This document shows, piece by piece, positions 1 to 7,573 of a DNA stretch of 32,224 nucleotides (the first letter of the stretch is position 1; every line of letters begins with the position of its first letter). The DNA comes from a virus. Position numbers and translations under genes: made by a program. The DNA lies in the UHGV virus genome UHGV-0122054; one strand, 5' to 3'. Below the pieces are notes generated by a model. The model searched no databases and had not been told where the DNA came from. It saw nothing but the letters and a program-made list of their open reading frames with translations.

Positions 1-49
1 TTCTGCACCCTCAGAACATCAGGAGGCCGTCCGAAAGGGCGGTAGTGAA

Positions 50-232
50 ATGCGAAAATTCAAAATAATTATTGAAACGGGAATAGCCGGTGGAGATTTC
101 GAGGATGAATTCGAAGTGGATGATGATGCAACACCAGATGAAATACAGGATGAAGCTAAAGATATTTTCTTTAACTACTGCAATTACTCATACCACGAAA
201 TAAAAGACGAAGAGGAAGAACAAAATGGCTGA
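50..232 (+). CDS. Hypothetical small acidic phage protein (60 aa)
   Basis: ORF in track; same orientation as tightly packed neighbours; possible SD 'agggcgg' upstream. No recognised domain. Confidence 0.35.
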   Translation: MRKFKIIIETGIAGGDFEDEFEVDDDATPDEIQDEAKDIFFNYCNYSYHEIKDEEEEQNG

Positions 233-401
233 TTTTGGTTCAACTAAATATAACGCCAGTTTTGAAGAATGGCATGAACTGTTAATGGATTATGCAGAGT
301 TACGCGGTGGAAGTGCCGCTGATGCTGAAGCATGGCGTGATGATTATGAAGCAGGGAAAACACCGGTCGAAGCATATTGTGATGAGTGGGGCGATGAATG
401 A
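225..401 (+). CDS. Hypothetical small phage protein (58 aa, below track cutoff)
   Basis: ATG at 225 preceded by GAGGAAG; stop TGA 399-401 overlaps next ATG at 398 (ATGA coupling). Translates MADFGSTKYNASFEEWHELL... Confidence 0.35.
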   Translation: MADFGSTKYNASFEEWHELLMDYAELRGGSAADAEAWRDDYEAGKTPVEAYCDEWGDE

Positions 402-757
402 GCGAGATTAATTATCAGGAAGGGCATGAAAAGGCAGGGCAGGCAAAACCAGTGGCATGGCGATATCGCTACGTGAAAAAAGGCGTTACAGACTTTCAGG
501 GGAAGCAGTGGGTTGGTGACTGGAAATATGTACCGACAAAAGAGGATTGCAACGACAGACCGAACTATGAAATTCAGGCGTTATTCACTGCCCCGCCTGT
601 GCCACTGACACCAGAAGGATTGATTAAAGCAGTGCGTTTCTATGAACAGGTAAAGCGTGAGAATCCGCCAGTCGAAACCGGAGCATGGAAAGACGCTGTT
701 GACTGGGTGCTCAAAGAGGCTTGCCAGTCTGTAAACATTGGCATCAAAGGAGAGTGA
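398..757 (+). CDS. Hypothetical nin-region phage protein
   Basis: 119-aa ORF, 4-nt overlap with upstream gene; ends ...IGIKGE with an embedded SD for the next gene. Confidence 0.55.
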   Translation: MSEINYQEGHEKAGQAKPVAWRYRYVKKGVTDFQGKQWVGDWKYVPTKEDCNDRPNYEIQALFTAPPVPLTPEGLIKAVRFYEQVKRENPPVETGAWKDAVDWVLKEACQSVNIGIKGE

Positions 758-759
758 GA

Positions 760-1251
760 ATGCAAATTTCACCGGTTACTCTTCGTGTTGCGAAGGCGTT
801 TATATCCAGACATCACCGACACAATAAACCCCCGGTGGGGCATAAATTCAGCATTGGTCTGAGAAATGATGCCGGAGAATTGATAGGTGTGGCGACAGCC
901 GGTAGACCTGTTGCACGACATTTGGACGATGGATTAACGCTTGAAGTAAATCGCACATGTACCACAGGAGAACGCAACGCTAACAGCGCGCTTTATGGTG
1001 CTGTCTGGCGGGCAGCAAAGGCTATGGGTTATCAACGTTGTATTACGTACACCCAGGCAGATGAATCAGGAGCATCTCTCCGCGCAGCTGGTTTTGTTCG
1101 TGTGAAAGAGCTTCCTCCAAGAAAAAGCTGGGCGGAATCAAGCGTCGCCCTGCGGAGTAAACGCGATCCGGTCGGAAACGGTGGTGTTCCTCGTGTGCTC
1201 TGGGAAATCAGGAGAATGAGTACCACTGGCATTCGCATCAAAGGAGAGTGA
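760..1251 (+). CDS. Hypothetical nin-region phage protein (163 aa)
   Basis: Track ORF 721..1251; preferred start is ATG 760 just after AAAGGAGAG. Ends ...IRIKGE followed by the same junction sequence as the previous gene. Confidence 0.55.
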   Translation: MQISPVTLRVAKAFISRHHRHNKPPVGHKFSIGLRNDAGELIGVATAGRPVARHLDDGLTLEVNRTCTTGERNANSALYGAVWRAAKAMGYQRCITYTQADESGASLRAAGFVRVKELPPRKSWAESSVALRSKRDPVGNGGVPRVLWEIRRMSTTGIRIKGE

Positions 1252-1252
1252 T

Positions 1253-1516
1253 ATGGCAACTTTGACAAAAAAAGAACAAGCATGGTTGAGCGAATTACAG
1301 GACGTTCTTGATCGCTGTCCATCACCGAAAAAAATTGGTTTTTACACCATTGGCGATAAAAGCATTTACCTGTATGACCTGCGCCGCATGGATGAAATCA
1401 TGGAGGCTCTTGATAATCGTTCGTCGATGGATTGGTGTGTTGCTGTTCATGATATGAATGCAGGGTTTGATGAAAAGATTTTGTTCCCCTCATCAGTTGA
1501 AAGCACTGCGGGTTAA
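1253..1516 (+). CDS. Hypothetical phage protein (87 aa)
   Basis: ATG 2 nt after upstream stop, SD AAAGGAGAG. Confidence 0.5.
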   Translation: MATLTKKEQAWLSELQDVLDRCPSPKKIGFYTIGDKSIYLYDLRRMDEIMEALDNRSSMDWCVAVHDMNAGFDEKILFPSSVESTAG

Positions 1517-1526
1517 GGAGTAACAC

Positions 1527-2429
1527 ATGACCACTATTACCAAAGAACGTATTGAATTGTTCATTAAAAATCCGCTTGAAAACGGGCTTACCCGTGGTGA
1601 ACAAATGGAACTGGCACGGATTGCGCTGGCATCGCTGGAAGCAGATCCAGTTAAACGAGTTAACTCAGATCAGATGCGCCGAGTCTGCTTAGAAGCTAAT
1701 CGCCATTTAGATAAATATGACGCGATGGCGAAAGAGGTAAATAAGTTGCTTGGACGCATCGCCCCGCCAGCGCCGGTAGTGCCGGAAGAAGCAACTCCGG
1801 AAAACGTAGAAATGCTCTCTGGCTATGTTTCCACGTACAAATTAACCGATAGCGAGCGCGATATTGCTGCCGAAATATGGAACGCCTGCCGCACCGCCAT
1901 GCTTCAGTCCGGAAACTTTCGGGAAAGCAAGAATTCGTCAACCAATAATTTTCGGGAAATCCCGGAAGCGTCAACCAGCTCTCCGGTAACTCCGGCTCTT
2001 CTGCCTGGTGGTTTCACCATTGAGGAGGCGAAGGAATTACATGAAGACCTGGTACGCAGCCACATAAGCAAGGCCTTAAGTGGCGAAAAGATGAAAAAGA
2101 AAGATCGCGATGCTGATTTACGCTGGATTCATGGCGTTATAGTTCAGGCAGCGTGGTTTGTAAAAGCATCACTGGAGCAGAATGCACTATCGGGCAACTC
2201 TCCGGCAACTCCGGATGGTTGGATAAGCTGTAGTGAGCGAATGCCGAATACCAAAACAGCCGTTCTTGTTGCCGTGGAGTTTGACAGGAAAGGTGACTGG
2301 CGAATGAAATGGGCTACTTACATCCCCGGGCATCCTGACGCTAATGATGGGTGGATAATTCCTGGTGCGTCGTGGAAACCGTCACACTGGATGCCGCTAC
2401 CAGAACCGCCGCAGGAGGTGAATCAATGA
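1527..2429 (+). CDS. Phage protein with DUF551-like C-terminal region
   Basis: 300-aa ORF; SD 'aaggag' upstream; C-terminal W/P-rich segment resembles DUF551 phage proteins (from memory, unverified). Confidence 0.5.
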   Translation: MTTITKERIELFIKNPLENGLTRGEQMELARIALASLEADPVKRVNSDQMRRVCLEANRHLDKYDAMAKEVNKLLGRIAPPAPVVPEEATPENVEMLSGYVSTYKLTDSERDIAAEIWNACRTAMLQSGNFRESKNSSTNNFREIPEASTSSPVTPALLPGGFTIEEAKELHEDLVRSHISKALSGEKMKKKDRDADLRWIHGVIVQAAWFVKASLEQNALSGNSPATPDGWISCSERMPNTKTAVLVAVEFDRKGDWRMKWATYIPGHPDANDGWIIPGASWKPSHWMPLPEPPQEVNQ

Positions 2430-2509
2430 GCTGGCCTGAAGCATTAACAACGGTAGGAATTGCGATGGCGGTGGCGCTGGTGGTGTATTCGATTTGCCGC
2501 TGGGGATAA
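2426..2509 (+). CDS. Small hydrophobic peptide (27 aa, MSWPEALTTVGIAMAVALVVYSICRWG)
   Basis: ATGA overlap with upstream stop (2426-2429); single hydrophobic helix; below track cutoff. Confidence 0.3.
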   Translation: MSWPEALTTVGIAMAVALVVYSICRWG

Positions 2510-2720
2510 AAACGGTTTGCGGGAAAAGGAGAGTTAAGTAGAATTGCAGCGGGTGCTTGAGGCTATCTGTCTCAGGCATGAACACCAAAAGGCAGATAGA
2601 GAAAAGCCCCAGTTAACATTACGCGTCCGGCAAGACGCTTAACATTAATCTGAGGCCCAATCTATGTCTCACAAATGTAGGTTAGCCTCTTACGTGCCGA
2701 AAGGCAAGGAGAAGCAGGCT

Positions 2721-2876
2721 ATGAAGCAGCAAAAGGCGATGTTAATCGCCCTGATCGTCATCTGTTTAACCGTCATAGTGACGGCACTGGTAACGAGGAA
2801 AGACCTCTGCGAGGTACGAATCCGAACCGGCCAGACGGAGGTCGCTGTCTTCACAGCTTACGAACCTGAGGAGTAA
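2721..2876 (+). CDS. hokD: Hok/Gef-family type I toxin (HokD/RelF-like, 51 aa)
   Basis: Translation MKQQKAMLIALIVICLTVIVTALVTRKDLCEVRIRTGQTEVAVFTAYEPEE matches my recollection of HokD/RelF. In-frame upstream extension from ATG 2664 gives the 70-aa track ORF (mok-like leader). Confidence 0.85.
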   Translation: MKQQKAMLIALIVICLTVIVTALVTRKDLCEVRIRTGQTEVAVFTAYEPEE

Positions 2877-2946
2877 GAGACCCGGCGGGGGAGAAATCCC
2901 TCGCCACCTCTGATGTGTCAGGCATCCTCAACGCACCCGCACGTAA

Positions 2947-2971
2947 CCCGCTTCGGCGGGTTTTGTTTTTT
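2947..2971 (+). terminator. Intrinsic terminator after hok (CCCGC-UUCG-GCGGG, then T-run)
   Basis: 5-bp GC stem with UUCG tetraloop followed by TTTTGTTTTTT. Confidence 0.75.
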
Positions 2972-3171
2972 CCTGGCATTCTGGTTTACAATTCGCACGC
3001 CAGCCTGAACAACTGGCACCTGCTGCGCCAGCAGAGACAACCGATGGCGCACGATACCAAATTACACAATTCTAATGATTCTGCCGTCTTTGCCAGTAGG
3101 TGCGGACGGCGTTTTCACGCATTCAAATCAGACTGGTTCCAGCATCCTCCATGCACTGAAGAGCAGGCGGA

Positions 3172-3996
3172 ATGGATAATTCAGTGTTACCGCAGGCGCG
3201 GATACTGCGCCATGTTAAATCCTGCCAGTGGCCACACGGCGATTATCACCACAGTGAAACCGTCATTCACCGTTATGGTACCGGCGCAATGGTGTTGTGC
3301 TGGCACTGCGACAACCAGCTGCGCGACCAGACCTCCGAATCACTCGGGCAACTTGCTCACCAAAACCTGTCTGCATGGATGATTGACGTCATACGCCATG
3401 CAATGAATGGCTCGCAGGAACGGGAATTATCGCTGGCTGAATTATCCTGGTGGGCGGTCCGCAATCAGGTGGCGGACGCGCTACCGGAAGCGGTATTACG
3501 TCGTTCGCTGGGGTTGCGTGCGGAAAAAATCCGCTCAATGTACCGTGAAAGCGACATCGTACCGGGAGAGCAGACCGCCACCAGCATACTGAAACAGCGC
3601 ACAAAAAATCTTGCGCCGCTGCCTCACGCCCACCAGCAACAGAACCCACCACAGGAAAAGACGGTGGTCAGCATTGCCGTTGATCCTGAGTCTCCGGAAT
3701 CTTTCATGAAACGACCTAAACGTCGCCGCTGGGTTAACGAGAAATACACTCGCTGGGTGAAGACACAGCCGTGTGCGTGTTGTGGTAAGCCAGCCGACGA
3801 TCCCCATCACCTGATTGGTCATGGTCAGGGCGGAATGGGGACAAAATCTCACGATATTTTCACGCTACCGCTGTGTCGGGAGCATCACAACGAGTTTCAT
3901 GCGAATCCGCTGGCGTTCGAAGAAAAGCATGGTTCTCAGGTTGATTTAATTTTTCGTTTTCTTGATCACGCCTTTGCAACTGGCGTGCTTGGGTAA
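3172..3996 (+). CDS. DUF968-like phage protein with C-terminal Cys/His zinc-binding HNH-like motif; 5' boundary uncertain
   Basis: C-terminus CACCGKP...HHLIGHGQGG...LCREHHNEFH typical of YdfU/DUF968-type proteins. Overlapping frame-2 ORF 2915..3382 makes the start ambiguous (see findings). Confidence 0.6.
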   Translation: MDNSVLPQARILRHVKSCQWPHGDYHHSETVIHRYGTGAMVLCWHCDNQLRDQTSESLGQLAHQNLSAWMIDVIRHAMNGSQERELSLAELSWWAVRNQVADALPEAVLRRSLGLRAEKIRSMYRESDIVPGEQTATSILKQRTKNLAPLPHAHQQQNPPQEKTVVSIAVDPESPESFMKRPKRRRWVNEKYTRWVKTQPCACCGKPADDPHHLIGHGQGGMGTKSHDIFTLPLCREHHNEFHANPLAFEEKHGSQVDLIFRFLDHAFATGVLG

Positions 3997-4008
3997 AAGA
4001 GGTGACTG

Positions 4009-4383
4009 ATGCTCATAGATTTGGTTTTACCTTACCCGCCGACGGTGAACACTTACTGGCGACGCCGTGGCAGCACATATTTTATCTCGGAGGAGGGAAA
4101 GCGTTATCGCCGGGCTGTGGCGCTTATTGTTCGCCAGCAGCGGCTGAAATTAAGCCTGTCCGGAAGGCTGGCGATAAAGGTGATTGCAGAGCCACCGGAT
4201 AAGCGTCGTCGCGACCTGGACAATATCCTGAAAGCACCGCTGGATGCGCTGACGCATGCGGGAGTGTTAATGGACGATGAGCAGTTTGATGAAATCAATA
4301 TCGTTCGTGGTCAGCCAGTATCTGGTGGACGTATGGGGGTGAAGATTTACCCCATAATGCATGAAGAGCAGGTCAAAAAATGA
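4009..4383 (+). CDS. rusA: Holliday junction resolvase RusA
   Basis: 124 aa; PYPPTVNTYWRRRG...RRRDLDN...DDEQ pattern matches RusA family; SD AAGAGG upstream. Confidence 0.85.
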   Translation: MLIDLVLPYPPTVNTYWRRRGSTYFISEEGKRYRRAVALIVRQQRLKLSLSGRLAIKVIAEPPDKRRRDLDNILKAPLDALTHAGVLMDDEQFDEINIVRGQPVSGGRMGVKIYPIMHEEQVKK

Positions 4384-5201
4384 AACTGGAAGATTTACCG
4401 AAATACTACTCCCCAAAATCCCCTGGCCTGACCGATGCATCGGCCTCAACGTCAAAAGATGCGCTGAGTATCACTGATGTGATGGCCGCGCAGGGCATGA
4501 CACAGAATCGGGCTGAGATGGGGTTTTCTGCGTTCCTGGGGAAAATGGGCATCAGTATGAATGACAGGGCGCGGGCAACAGAATTACTGGCAGATTATGC
4601 ACTCAGTCGGTGCGATCGTGTGGCGGCGTTGAGAAAACTTCCGGCAGAAATAAAACCGGTAGTGATGCGCATTATGGCTTCGTATGCGTTTGAAGATTAT
4701 GCCCGTAGCGCGGCGAGCAAAAAACAGTGCCCCTGCTGTCACGGAAAAAAATTTATTGAAAGCGAGGTTTTTACAAACAAGATCCAGTATCCGGATGGTA
4801 AGCCACCAGTGTGGGCAAAGTGCACAAAAGGCGTGTATCCGTCTTACTGGGAAGAATGGAAAAAAGTCAGGGAGGTGGTAAAAGTTGCCTGTCCGGAGTG
4901 TGGCGGAAAGGGTGAGGTTTCCACCGCCTGTAAGGATTGCCGTGGGCGTGGTGTCGCCATTCATCGTGAAGAGTCGGTAAAACGTGGTATGCCTGTTATC
5001 AGAGATTGCCAGCGTTGTGGTGGTCGTGGCTGTGAAAGGCTGCCATCAACGGAGGCATTTAATGCCATATGCAAAGTGACGAGTGCTATCACGCTTGATA
5101 CGTGGAAAAAATCAGTGAAACGCTTTTACGATACGTTGGTGGTTCGGTTTGACATTGAAGAGGCATGGGCGGAGCGGCAGTTAAAGAGGGTAACGCGATA
5201 G
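4380..5201 (+). CDS. Late-gene antitermination protein Q (QuuQ/Q82-like)
   Basis: N-terminal LPKYYSPKSP and CxxC...CxxC zinc cluster; ATGA overlap with rusA; immediately followed by a PR'-like promoter. Confidence 0.75.
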   Translation: MKLEDLPKYYSPKSPGLTDASASTSKDALSITDVMAAQGMTQNRAEMGFSAFLGKMGISMNDRARATELLADYALSRCDRVAALRKLPAEIKPVVMRIMASYAFEDYARSAASKKQCPCCHGKKFIESEVFTNKIQYPDGKPPVWAKCTKGVYPSYWEEWKKVREVVKVACPECGGKGEVSTACKDCRGRGVAIHREESVKRGMPVIRDCQRCGGRGCERLPSTEAFNAICKVTSAITLDTWKKSVKRFYDTLVVRFDIEEAWAERQLKRVTR

Positions 5202-5206
5202 TGTTG

Positions 5207-5250
5207 TTGATTTTTCCCGAATCTGTGGTAAATTTGCTCTAACGATGGGC
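5207..5250 (+). promoter_or_regulatory. PR'-like late promoter with qut/pause element
   Basis: -35 TTGATT (5207-5212), 16-nt spacer, -10 TAAATT (5229-5234), then ...CTCTAACGATGGG, very close to the lambda PR' initial transcribed region. Confidence 0.6.
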
Positions 5251-5283
5251 GTTTTATGCCTGACGTTAGAAGATTTTTTACAC

Positions 5284-5305
5284 CCCGCCGCCTGGCGGGT
5301 TTTTT
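5284..5305 (+). terminator. tR'-like intrinsic terminator
   Basis: CCCGCC-GCCT-GGCGGG hairpin followed by TTTTTT, about 50 nt downstream of the predicted start. Confidence 0.7.
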
Positions 5306-5427
5306 ATGACTGAAATCGCGTCAGTACAGTAAACGCGCTGGTGGCGGTGAATACCTGTCTTTCAGCTTGCTGGCTTTTTCGACAAGAGTTATTGGTGTGT
5401 CACGTTAACCGGAAAAGGGAAAAAGAC

Positions 5428-5625
5428 ATGCTAAAACAGCAGGATATGACAGAAACCGCCAGAGTGGTGTTTAATGAATTAAGCGTTACCGAACCGGCGA
5501 CAGTCGGGGAGATAGCGCAGAATACTTACCTTTCACGCGAACGCTGCCAGTTAATACTGACCCAGCTGGTTATGGCGGGTCTGGCAGACTATCAGTTCGG
5601 TTGTTACAGACGCCTTCCGCAGTGA
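5428..5625 (+). CDS. Small putative DNA-binding (winged-helix-like) protein (65 aa)
   Basis: Track ORF 5341..5625; preferred ATG 5428 after 'aaaggga'; stop lies inside a terminator hairpin. Confidence 0.4.
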   Translation: MLKQQDMTETARVVFNELSVTEPATVGEIAQNTYLSRERCQLILTQLVMAGLADYQFGCYRRLPQ

Positions 5626-5775: not shown

Positions 5776-6825
5776 ATGCTTAATACTGTAAAAATATCCA
5801 GTTGTGAGTTAATCAACGCCGACTGCCTGGAATTTATCCGGTCGTTACCCGAAAATTCTGTTGACCTGATAGTCACGGACCCGCCGTACTTTAAAGTGAA
5901 GCCTGAGGGCTGGGATAACCAGTGGAAGGGCGACGATGATTACCTGAAGTGGCTGGACCAGTGTCTGGCGCAGTTCTGGCGGGTGCTGAAACCTGCCGGA
6001 AGTCTTTACCTGTTCTGTGGTCATCGCCTGGCATCTGATATCGAAATCATGATGCGTGAACGCTTCAGTGTGCTGAACCATATTATCTGGGCGAAGCCGT
6101 CCGGACGCTGGAACGGATGCAACAAGGAAAGCCTGCGGGCGTATTTCCCCGCCACAGAGCGCATTCTGTTCGCGGAACATTATCAGGGGCCGTATCGTCC
6201 GAAAGATGCCGGGTATGCGGCGAAGGGCAGTGCACTGAAACAGCATGTGATGGCCCCGCTGATTTCTTACTTTCGTGATGCGCGCGCGGCCCTGGGGATA
6301 ACGGCAAAACAGATTGCAGATGCCACAGGAAAGAAAAACATGGTGTCGCACTGGTTCAGTGCCAGTCAGTGGCAGCTACCGAACGAAAGCGATTATCTGA
6401 AATTACAGTCGCTGTTTGCCCGGGTGGCAGAAGAGAAACATCAGCGCGGTGAACTGGAAAAGCCCCACCACCAGCTGGTGGATACGTATACGTCACTGAA
6501 CCGGCAGTATGTGGAGCTGCAGAGTGAATATAAGCATCTGCGGCGGTATTTTGGTGTGACGGCGCAGGTGCCGTACACGGATGTGTGGACACATAAACCG
6601 GTGCAGTTCTATCCCGGGAAACATCCGTGCGAAAAACCGGCAGAAATGCTGCAGCAGATAATCAGCGCAAGCAGTCGTCCGGGTGACCTGGTTGCAGATT
6701 TTTTTATGGGCTCAGGTTCAACGGTAAAAGCGGCACTGGCGCTCGGGCGTCGTGCGATTGGCGTTGAACTGGAGACCGGACGTTTTGAGCAGACAGTCAG
6801 GGAAGTTCAGGATTTAATCGTTTGA
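5776..6825 (+). CDS. N6-adenine DNA methyltransferase (orphan)
   Basis: N-terminal ...DLIVTDPPY (DPPY motif) and FxGSGST AdoMet-binding motif near the C-terminus; no adjacent restriction gene. Confidence 0.85.
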   Translation: MLNTVKISSCELINADCLEFIRSLPENSVDLIVTDPPYFKVKPEGWDNQWKGDDDYLKWLDQCLAQFWRVLKPAGSLYLFCGHRLASDIEIMMRERFSVLNHIIWAKPSGRWNGCNKESLRAYFPATERILFAEHYQGPYRPKDAGYAAKGSALKQHVMAPLISYFRDARAALGITAKQIADATGKKNMVSHWFSASQWQLPNESDYLKLQSLFARVAEEKHQRGELEKPHHQLVDTYTSLNRQYVELQSEYKHLRRYFGVTAQVPYTDVWTHKPVQFYPGKHPCEKPAEMLQQIISASSRPGDLVADFFMGSGSTVKAALALGRRAIGVELETGRFEQTVREVQDLIV

Positions 6826-6874: not shown

Positions 6875-6950
6875 GGCCCTTTAGCTCAGTGGTGAGAGCG
6901 AGCGACTCATAATCGCCAGGTCGCTGGTTCAAATCCAGCAAGGGCCACCA
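6875..6950 (+). tRNA. tRNA with CAU anticodon (Ile2/lysidine type; ileZ-like of Stx phages)
   Basis: 76 nt; acceptor GGCCCTT/AAGGGCC, D-arm GCTC..GAGC, anticodon loop CTCATAA, T-loop TTCAAAT, CCA end; close to E. coli ileX in my recollection. Confidence 0.85.
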
Positions 6951-6957
6951 TCACATA

Positions 6958-7034
6958 CCGCCATTAGCTCATCAGGAAAGAGCGCCAGCCTTCGAAGCTG
7001 GTTGCGCGGAGTTCGGGTCCCCGAAGGCGGTCCA
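6958..7034 (+). tRNA. tRNA-Arg-like (anticodon UCG), possibly imperfect
   Basis: 77 nt cloverleaf with perfect anticodon stem (CCAGC/GCTGG, loop CTTCGAA), but one mismatch in the acceptor stem (A.A) and one in the T-stem (A.C). Confidence 0.5.
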
Positions 7035-7047
7035 TTATCTGTATCCT

Positions 7048-7124
7048 GCGTTGTTAGCTCAGCCGGACAGAGCAATTGCCTTCTAAGCAATCGGTCACTG
7101 GTTCGAATCCAGTACAACGCGCCA
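7048..7124 (+). tRNA. tRNA-Arg (anticodon UCU; argO/argU-like)
   Basis: 77 nt; acceptor GCGTTGT/ACAACGC, anticodon loop CTTCTAA, T-arm ACTGG-TTCGAAT-CCAGT, CCA end. Confidence 0.85.
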
Positions 7125-7169: not shown

Positions 7170-7383
7170 CTCACAATTCAGGCGGTTGACTGTTGTCTGG
7201 TTTGCGGGGAGTTTGTTAAAAGAAACTGGCATGGTGAATCCCCCTGTGCGGAGGGGCAATCAGCGAGTAGGTATATGGGATAATCGCGGATTCAGGTGCT
7301 GGTACTGAATTCACCGGGAGGCACCCGGCACCATGCAATGGCACATAGCGCCACTCTCCAGCCCCTCTCCGGAGGGGCTTTTC
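7170..7383 (+). ncRNA. Candidate small-RNA module A (non-coding, ends in intrinsic terminator)
   Basis: No credible ORF; hairpin CCCCT-gtgcgg-AGGGG (7240-7256); conserved CACCGGGAGGCACCCGGCACCATG (7312-7335); terminator GCCCCTC-TCCG-GAGGGGC plus TTTT (7361-7383). Homologous to module B. Confidence 0.3.
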
Positions 7384-7573
7384 TGTGCCGGATACATCAC
7401 AGTTTCTGGAACCTTAGGTACTACAGTATCAGTCAGGGTGCTATATTTTCAGATGTGATGAAAGCCTGTCAGCAGGCAGGGCGTATCGGAAATGACCCAG
7501 TAGAGAAAACGTTGACTCAGATACCGGTGCTGAGTTACCGGGAAACCGGCATCACATGACCGCTATCCTTCCA

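Follow-up and report, generated by a model that had tools for sequence, protein, structure and literature searches.

A hok-mok-sok type I toxin-antitoxin cassette, very probably intact, and a conserved 27-codon reading frame in the nin-like region of a lambdoid prophage

The window analysed here, by which we mean the whole 32,224-nucleotide (nt) stretch of UHGV virus genome UHGV-0122054, contains the gene for a 51-residue membrane toxin of the Hok/Gef family, surrounded by the RNA elements through which such toxins are controlled. All open reading frames (ORFs) between positions 50 and 5201 lie on the plus strand, with a DUF551 gene upstream of the toxin gene and genes for a DUF968 protein, RusA and antiterminator Q downstream, an arrangement that corresponds to the nin-like stretch of a lambdoid prophage. 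We consider it very likely that the locus is an intact hok-mok-sok type I toxin-antitoxin cassette of the hokD/hokW type in this early region, and all of its regulatory parts that can be recognised from sequence are intact. The locus is of an already known kind, and hokD is the existing annotation of identical DNA. The following features make up the cassette:

2517-2544 (+): candidate hok/mok promoter, predicted from sequence, with -35 TTGCGG at 2517-2522, a 16-nt spacer and -10 TAGAAT at 2539-2544, 6 nt from G2551
2551-2970 (+): predicted full-length hok (mok-hok) mRNA of about 420 nt, delimited by the Rfam leader start at 2551 and the terminator at 2945-2962
2551-2562 (+): tac element GGGUGCUUGAGG at the mRNA 5' end, predicted to pair with 2926-2938
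2606-2656 (+): leader hairpin, in which the anti-Shine-Dalgarno (anti-SD), ucb-like GCCCCAG at 2606-2612 sequesters the mok Shine-Dalgarno sequence (SD) CUGAGGC at 2650-2656; the Sok terminator hairpin is complementary to it
2664-2876 (+): mok reading frame, 70 residues, in frame with hok and equivalent to mokW of phage 933W, with its start codon in the target hairpin 2659-2683
2721-2876 (+): hok toxin gene, 51 residues, ATG at 2721-2723, stop at 2874-2876, SD AAGGAG at 2706-2711
2884-2905 (+): stem-loop GGCGGGGG-AGAAAU-CCCUCGCC of the 3' untranslated region (3' UTR), present in the minimum free energy (MFE) fold
2926-2938 (+): fbi element CCUCAACGCACCC, predicted to pair with tac
2945-2971 (+): intrinsic terminator, AACCCGC-UUCG-GCGGGUU at 2945-2962 followed by a T-run
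2602-2672 (-): predicted Sok antisense RNA, 71 nt, from about G2672 to about 2602, with coordinates carried over from the sokW misc_RNA of phage 933W
2679-2707 (-): Sok promoter, -35 TTGCCT at 2707-2702, a 17-nt spacer and -10 TAACCT at 2684-2679, 6 nt from G2672

The hok product, MKQQKAMLIALIVICLTVIVTALVTRKDLCEVRIRTGQTEVAVFTAYEPEE, forms the last 51 residues of the 70-residue ORF and matches Pfam HOK_GEF (PF01848) across the entire profile (positions 1-42 of 42) with 81.6 bits against a cut-off of 22 (E=3e-23), as well as PHROG 251, 'MokW-like host killing', with 114.7 bits, so that the Hok/Gef-family assignment proposed in an earlier note on this DNA is borne out. Its layout, K5-AMLIALIVICLTVIVTALV-TRKD, points to an N-terminal transmembrane helix followed by a periplasmic tail with the conserved Cys30. 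RefSeq records the protein as WP_000813254.1, which is annotated as hokD on identical DNA; the alignment to hokD/relF and hok/sok loci that the same note had called for returned this very accession for HokD of Escherichia coli K-12, and 92.8% identity to the hok locus of phage 933W. The FDAARGOS_1248 chromosome is 100% identical over the region, with 2 differences over window positions 1-5578, and megablast with the 601-nt region retrieved homologues from 4968 of 5426 complete E. coli genomes and from 113 phage records. Since identical DNA carries the hokD annotation and homologous DNA is distributed this widely, a chance origin of the reading frame is excluded. The hok ATG at 2721 is the sole correction made to the features described earlier, the coordinates of which are otherwise exact or within 1-2 bases.

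The codon for Tyr47 of Hok, UAC, is followed by G, giving UACG at 2859-2862, and the motif is kept in HokW (GAC TAC GAA). TadA A-to-I editing of hokC/D/E mRNAs was reported to recode a Tyr to the second Cys (2026 preprint), and A2860 would correspond to this editing site.

The Rfam family RF01794 ('sok') matches positions 2551-2726 with 120.1 bits against a gathering score of 59 (E=1.9e-28; model positions 1-157 of 157). As this match lies on the plus strand and runs from GGGUGCUUGAGG to the hok AUG, the model describes the hok mRNA leader, to part of which the Sok RNA is complementary. The predicted fold of the 420-nt mRNA has an MFE of -170.9 kcal/mol (z=-6.6 versus shuffled sequences) and brings the two ends together, with tac and fbi predicted to form 12 base pairs and one bulged C in both the MFE and the centroid structure. 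Among the 113 related loci, tac is unchanged in 112, the single variant differing only at the adjacent base 2563, while the natural fbi variants that were checked either fall on the base that is bulged or have G-U in place of a G-C pair, so that the pairing is kept. In loci where a shorter alternative hairpin occurs, three base pairs of the leader hairpin remain paired although both partners have changed. Removal of fbi in silico, by truncation at 2924, led to refolding of the 5' end and increased the probability that the hok SD is unpaired from 0.18 to 0.60. By likeness to plasmid R1 (PMC9841398), the stem-loop at 2884-2905 is a candidate for the protective 3' hairpin of the processed mRNA. 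The UUCG-tetraloop terminator expected at the mRNA 3' end was found at 2945-2962 as the sole terminator-like match in the region scanned, and it is the strongest of the few plus-strand terminator-like sites between window position 1 and the Q gene. On the promoter side, the putative -10 element TAGAAT is invariant in all 113 loci, across which the promoter hexamers and the SDs show conservation in general. Two further Rfam matches in this part, to isrK (27 bits at 2885-2966, with the cut-off at 50) and to rsmX (19 bits), are absent at the Rfam gathering thresholds and were rejected as sub-threshold structural look-alikes, arising from the 3'-UTR hairpin and the terminator only.

The in-frame, mok-like leader frame with its ATG at 2664 was likewise found as predicted earlier. 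Its frame relative to hok is not fixed, being shared with hok in 91 of the 113 loci and different in about ten others, with products of 67-68 or 19 residues. This variability fits the view that translating mok, and not the protein it yields, is what matters (PMC9841398).

An antisense Sok-like RNA had been expected on the minus strand across about 2600-2730. Homology to 933W supports this expectation and places the Sok gene on the minus strand within that interval (2707-2602 in total), with its promoter at 2707-2679 and the RNA running from 2672 to 2602. Sok is predicted to fold into a 14-nt single-stranded 5' tail (2672-2659), a long hairpin and CUUUU (-29.1 kcal/mol, z=-5.0), and its span includes both the mok SD (GAGG, 2652-2655) and the mok AUG. 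In the proposed minus-strand search for a -10/-35 pair and a terminator, a generic sigma-70 scan of 2350-3050 on both strands yielded no promoter; the pair and the terminator hairpin were placed via the 933W homology. The generic scan misses the Sok promoter because the -10 element TAACCT matches the consensus at only three of six positions, and its empty result is not evidence against Sok, since the experimentally validated sokW -10 (TAACCT) fails the scan thresholds as well. The promoter block at window positions 2676-2720 is identical to that of 933W, and TAACCT and TTGCCT are each found in 98 of the 113 related loci. In Sakai prophage 5 (Sp5), exchange of TAGGTTA for CCGGCTC in the 'pro-less' mutant (primers YO-421/422) exposed HokW toxicity and abolished antitoxin activity, sokW provided in trans gave a partial rescue, and Northern blots of Sp5 lysogens detected an antisense transcript of the hokW-sokW region (PMC8621323). 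The TAGGTTA altered in these experiments is the plus strand of the Sok -10 element placed here.

The hairpin at 2606-2656, which is the Sok terminator and sequesters the mok SD, occurs in a long form, present in this window with a 16-nt insertion relative to the RF01794 consensus, and in a short form; in the loci compared (L010, L019, L039, L082 and L098) the basal pairs are kept by compensatory changes. A compensated swap in the stem upstream of the hok SD, from GUGCC..GGCA to GGACC..GGUC, alters the Sok -35 element from TTGCCT to TTGACCT.

The closest characterised relative is hokW-mokW-sokW of phage 933W and Sp5 (AF125520; Takada et al., 2021, PMC8621323), with 92.8% identity over 529 nt that include a small upstream ORF, the promoter, the leader, the coding sequence (CDS) and fbi. 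The 933W record annotates mokW, hokW and a 71-nt sokW antisense RNA, and the two loci share the Sok -35/-10 block, the hok SD, the opening 44 residues of Hok, the in-frame 70-residue mok and the 71-nt Sok scaffold. In both, the cassette is co-oriented with the early genes and preceded by a 27-codon ORF. HokW, which was reported to be toxic (PMC8621323), agrees with the present protein in 44 of the first 45 residues but ends in VFVDYESEK instead of VFTAYEPEE. Further differences concern a short patch comprising the Sok 5' tail and mok codons 2-5, where 933W carries another allele class (6 of 21 positions), and the terminator, which is a different one, as the homology stops at window position 2940. 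Moreover, the 933W cassette comes after Ea-type genes, close to where the phage record ends, whereas the present one lies in a nin-like region upstream of DUF968-rusA-Q.

Comparison with hokD (relF) of the K-12 Qin prophage raises the question of whether the cassette might be a silent relic, correct in sequence but inert in a decaying prophage, as truncated K-12 hokD and several chromosomal hok loci have been reported to be. The K-12 locus encodes the same protein and has the same 3' UTR, fbi and terminator (98.9% identity over window positions 2707-2970), and its downstream neighbourhood is similar, with the DUF968 gene ydfU. However, relBE is fused 72 nt upstream, and because the homology starts only at window-equivalent 2707, right after relBE, no hok promoter, tac, mok start, Sok -10 or Sok body is present in K-12. 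K-12 hokD in this reduced form speaks for a relic, and so does the DUF968 gene next to the present cassette, called a frameshifted pseudogene on identical DNA, on account of which this prophage may be decaying. Here, on the contrary, all regulatory elements are intact and are conserved across the 113 loci, most of which retain an intact Hok frame, 70 of them with the identical peptide; in addition, the 93%-identical Sp5 locus is active (PMC8621323) and the HokD peptide is toxic on expression (bioRxiv 10.1101/2025.08.07.668861). A relic is therefore very unlikely in our view, and the window would rather show, with elements placed to the base, the complete ancestor form of the truncated K-12 hokD.

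The intact cassette also resembles hok/sok of plasmid R1, the mechanism and anatomy of which are summarised in PMC9841398: the mRNA ends pair through tac and fbi, the mok SD is sequestered by an anti-SD, a stem-loop lies in the 3' part, and a cis-antisense Sok combines a single-stranded 5' tail with a terminator hairpin. R1 Hok was reported to be 44% identical to HokW (PMC8621323), and the present locus differs from R1 in that mok is in frame with hok, making Mok an N-terminally extended Hok, and in that the carrier is a prophage instead of a plasmid. By analogy to R1, a weak constitutive promoter (2517-2544) would produce the mRNA of about 420 nt, which tac-fbi pairing and the buried mok ribosome-binding site would keep stable but silent until slow 3' trimming removes fbi and the leader refolds. 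Sok, via its 14-nt single-stranded 5' tail, would then bind the hairpin with the mok start codon and block the translation of mok and hence of hok, with the Sok-hok duplex presumably marked for RNase III. Once the supply of Sok ends, through prophage induction or DNA loss, the unstable Sok would vanish, the stored hok mRNA would be translated and Hok would damage the inner membrane.

With a prophage as carrier, it is probably induction that sets the system off, not plasmid loss. No strong plus-strand terminator was found upstream of hok, and we infer that antiterminated early transcription may run head-on through the cassette into the Sok promoter and occlude Sok upon induction. In Sp5, RecA-dependent induction was followed by a quick loss of sokW, persistence of hokW mRNA and production of HokW, with a partial dependence on RNase III and Hfq; truncated hokW RNAs were seen, albeit not characterised, and the authors leave open what removes Sok (PMC8621323). 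The same cassette could conceivably do another job, serving abortive-infection defence of the lysogen against other phages or prophage addiction instead of aiding lysis and phage release on induction. R1 hok/sok on a high-copy plasmid lowered the plating efficiency and plaque size of T4 (cited in PMC8621323), and hok is about four-fold enriched in prophages, many of which carry defence genes (bioRxiv 10.1101/2025.08.07.668861), although the same survey did not find hok enriched near defence systems. When Sp5 deleted for hokW-sokW was induced, growth arrest came later and half as much phage was released (PMC8621323), which shows a direct pro-phage effect of the locus. We regard a defence or addiction role in place of the release role as rather unlikely, with the reservation that the two are not mutually exclusive.

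Several points weigh against an intact cassette that operates in this way. The functional results, namely toxicity, Sok activity, dependence on the -10 element and loss of Sok on induction, come from the 93%-identical Sp5 locus, and what is shown for the window is its sequence anatomy, the family matches, the predicted folds and the homology. Both promoters deviate from expectation, as the hok -35 element is a poor consensus match that the generic promoter scan does not detect and the Sok -10 TAACCT is a poor match as well. The Sok 5' tail differs from that of SokW at 6 of 14 positions, and the Sok 5' end is consequently placed by homology only. After truncation, the mRNA refolds into a local, 'metastable-type' tac hairpin and not into the tac/ucb stem of R1, so that the mRNA switch is supported qualitatively only. 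The Hok protein scores under the curated cut-offs of the NCBIfam models for the NF007279 subfamily (48.5 versus 73) and the HokA equivalog NF007290 (40.2 versus 89); both models were built for other Hok subgroups, and the Prokaryotic Genome Annotation Pipeline (PGAP) still names the identical protein HokD. Finally, the chromosomal hok loci tested earlier mediated no post-segregational killing (cited in bioRxiv 10.1101/2025.08.07.668861).

As a toxin-antitoxin locus, the cassette adds little to what is known, since hok/sok is a textbook system, hokW-sokW has been characterised and the enrichment of hok in prophages has been catalogued. More informative is a short segment in which otherwise near-identical cassettes diverge:

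2658-2678 (no strand assigned): hypervariable patch of 21 nt, covering the Sok 5' tail, the loop and 5' arm of the target hairpin, and mok codons 2-5

Per-column entropy over 72 unique cassettes peaks at 2661-2680. Between the class of the window and the commonest class, 8 of 21 patch positions differ, compared with 0 of 149 in the rest of the leader and 2 of 156 in the hok CDS (Fisher p=1.4e-8). The mean pairwise difference is 0.318 in the patch, 0.029 in the rest of the leader, 0.095 at third codon positions of hok and 0.125 in the 3' UTR, so that the patch is about 11 times as divergent as the remaining leader and about three times as divergent as the hok third positions. Since divergence is lower at synonymous and UTR sites, a neutral explanation of the patch is unlikely. 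The same columns in loci L004-L123 resolve into at least 7 discrete allele classes. As the hypervariable region aligns ambiguously, the classes were folded one at a time. For most of them a simple target hairpin is predicted, its loop measuring 5-9 nt, and most retain a Sok tail that starts with G and is 14-15 nt long, the Sok scaffold being constant; three classes fold without a free tail.

The Sok 5' tail is reportedly, from the R1 work of Thisted and co-workers in 1994, the element that makes first contact with hok mRNA, and a diversification of Sok specificity is a plausible cause of the patch. Our fuller proposal, that the patch reflects diversifying selection for private Sok-hok pairing and that, separately, the 27-codon ORF described below is a widespread but seldom annotated membrane-protein gene of about a third of complete E. 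coli genomes, is put forward tentatively, as possible rather than probable. If it were true, co-resident prophages would each run an independent, non-cross-protected Hok switch, comparable to the incompatibility loops of CopA/CopT or RNAI/RNAII, and the hypervariability of the Sok seed would bear on antisense specificity classes in polylysogens such as enterohaemorrhagic E. coli. In such polylysogens, up to 12 places per genome match the hok locus, partial copies included. As to whether hok copies of one genome tend to belong to different Sok classes, three informative same-genome pairs from IMG/VR comprised two with the same and one with a different Sok class, a sample without statistical power, and the hok copies of two complete genomes all differed in Sok class (2 of 2 and 3 of 3), which likewise has no statistical power given the class frequencies.

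Immediately upstream of the hok promoter lies the small ORF already mentioned:

2426-2509 (+): ORF for a 27-residue, single-pass hydrophobic peptide MSWPEALTTVGIAMAVALVVYSICRWG, with SD AGGAGG at 2413-2418, 8 nt upstream, and an ATG that overlaps the upstream stop

The earlier note had described this ORF as coupled and directly upstream of the toxin gene. The ORF and its position were confirmed, but the coupling is to the DUF551/Ea-type gene and not to hok: at 2426-2429 (ATGA) the small-ORF ATG overlaps the TGA of an upstream 300-residue DUF551 ORF, so that translation would be coupled to an ordinary upstream gene. Of 110 loci from IMG/VR and reference records that share a 23-mer of the hok promoter, 83 have the small ORF intact, and neither alternative frame is open in any of them. 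Its ATG is always part of an ATGA in which it overlaps the end of a preceding ORF, 100-350 codons long, with a GGAGG or GGGG SD ahead of it, and this holds for three unrelated upstream contexts. Homologues were found in 95 phage records by tblastn and in 1738 of 5426 E. coli genomes, about a third, by blastn. In loci L124, L126 and L127 (each at 1201-1284), as in the window, the copy is ATGA-coupled to a preceding gene of the Ea22/EaA/DUF551 type. VT1-Sakai, where xis-int follows, and the virulent phage Av-05 carry a 27-residue homologue with no hok sequence in either fetched locus, PhiR12_4 has one beside other annotated genes, and POCJ13 has a stop that interrupts the frame after two codons. 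Pairwise dN/dS (nonsynonymous to synonymous divergence) ranges from 0.09 to 0.57 with dS up to 1.85, and the consensus reads M[ST]WP[ED]AF..VG...A.A[FL].VYS[IVL][CF]RWG.

From these patterns, the ORF looks like a real gene under purifying selection. Its conservation merely as DNA, for instance as part of the hok promoter, was considered and rejected, because the peptide is kept at dS values of 1.2-1.9 and the ORF occurs without hok. None of the inspected RefSeq or phage records annotates it, which may be owing to its shortness, and for its GTG-extended version of 52 residues there are only sporadic calls of partial DUF551 or 'hypothetical protein', none of them named or assigned a Pfam domain. 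The peptide has no significant match among Pfam, NCBIfam or PHROG families (best phrog_4612, E=0.012; KdpF, E=0.23), and a literature search for its sequence strings returned no mention. In size and in having one hydrophobic helix, the small single-pass membrane proteins KdpF, AcrZ and MgtS are the nearest analogies, though no named family applies; an acidic N-terminus (WPEA) and a basic C-terminus (CRWG) suggest an N-out/C-in orientation.

One may ask whether the 27-residue peptide and Hok act together as a two-peptide module spanning 2426-2975, in which the small peptide might, for example, be another toxin, modulate Hok or resemble a holin. In 83 of the 110 loci an intact copy of the ORF immediately precedes the hok promoter, which is compatible with this, as is the fact that the window and 933W become homologous precisely from the SD of the small ORF onward although their upstream genes differ, and both products are small single-pass membrane peptides. 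Yet VT1-Sakai and Av-05, neither with hok sequence in the fetched locus, have the ORF at an unchanged length and with the SD and the ATGA overlap preserved, 27 of the 110 loci have no intact copy, and in many hok loci the homology begins past it (query positions 105 or 132). As it lies upstream of the hok promoter, it would also belong to a different transcript in the lysogen, and for a type I toxin of its own the generic scan gave no promoter-like site on either strand over 2350-2550, including an antisense promoter over the ORF, and Rfam no match. We consider a two-peptide module highly improbable. Lying upstream of the hok promoter and occurring in phages without an adjacent hok, the ORF appears to be a neighbour and not a component of the toxin system; it probably encodes a real small membrane protein, being the cistron that closes the Ea/DUF551 block and not tied to hok, and would constitute a conserved small gene that annotation seldom records.

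The published pBAD18-hokW-sokW construct (primers YO-432/433, PMC8621323) begins at GAATCAATGACC and hence includes the 27-codon ORF without its SD behind the arabinose promoter, while the published hokW-sokW deletion leaves the ORF in place; the paper discusses the small ORF for neither construct.

Elsewhere in the window, a 176-residue ORF at 721-1251, called 'XF1762 family protein' by PGAP, shows a sub-threshold match to the Pfam Mom DNA-modification family (22.7 bits versus 27.1). The DUF968 gene at 3044-3996, which is ydfU-like and assigned to 'HNH endonuclease' in PHROG, appears frameshifted: the ORF at 3172-3996 matches profile positions 85-333 only, the N-terminal part (ATG at 3044) is read in a different frame, and on identical DNA each of the two pieces is labelled a pseudogene fragment by PGAP. 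Downstream of Q, two tandem copies of the small RNA STnc100 were found at 7200-7390 and 7668-7877 (136 and 165 bits), preceded by a DNA methyltransferase gene (5776-6825) and by tRNA genes for Met-CAT (6875-6950), Arg-TCG (6958-7034) and Arg-TCT (7048-7124). This site corresponds to the position of the Shiga-toxin genes in Stx phages; no stx is present among the listed ORFs, to which no dedicated stx search was added. Exact hokD-type cassettes were furthermore encountered on the short contigs L132, L135, L136 and L141, which are labelled Xanthomonas pisi, Veillonella parvula, Haemophilus and other metagenome-assembled genomes, and which most likely represent E. coli or phage contamination or mis-binning rather than real hosts.

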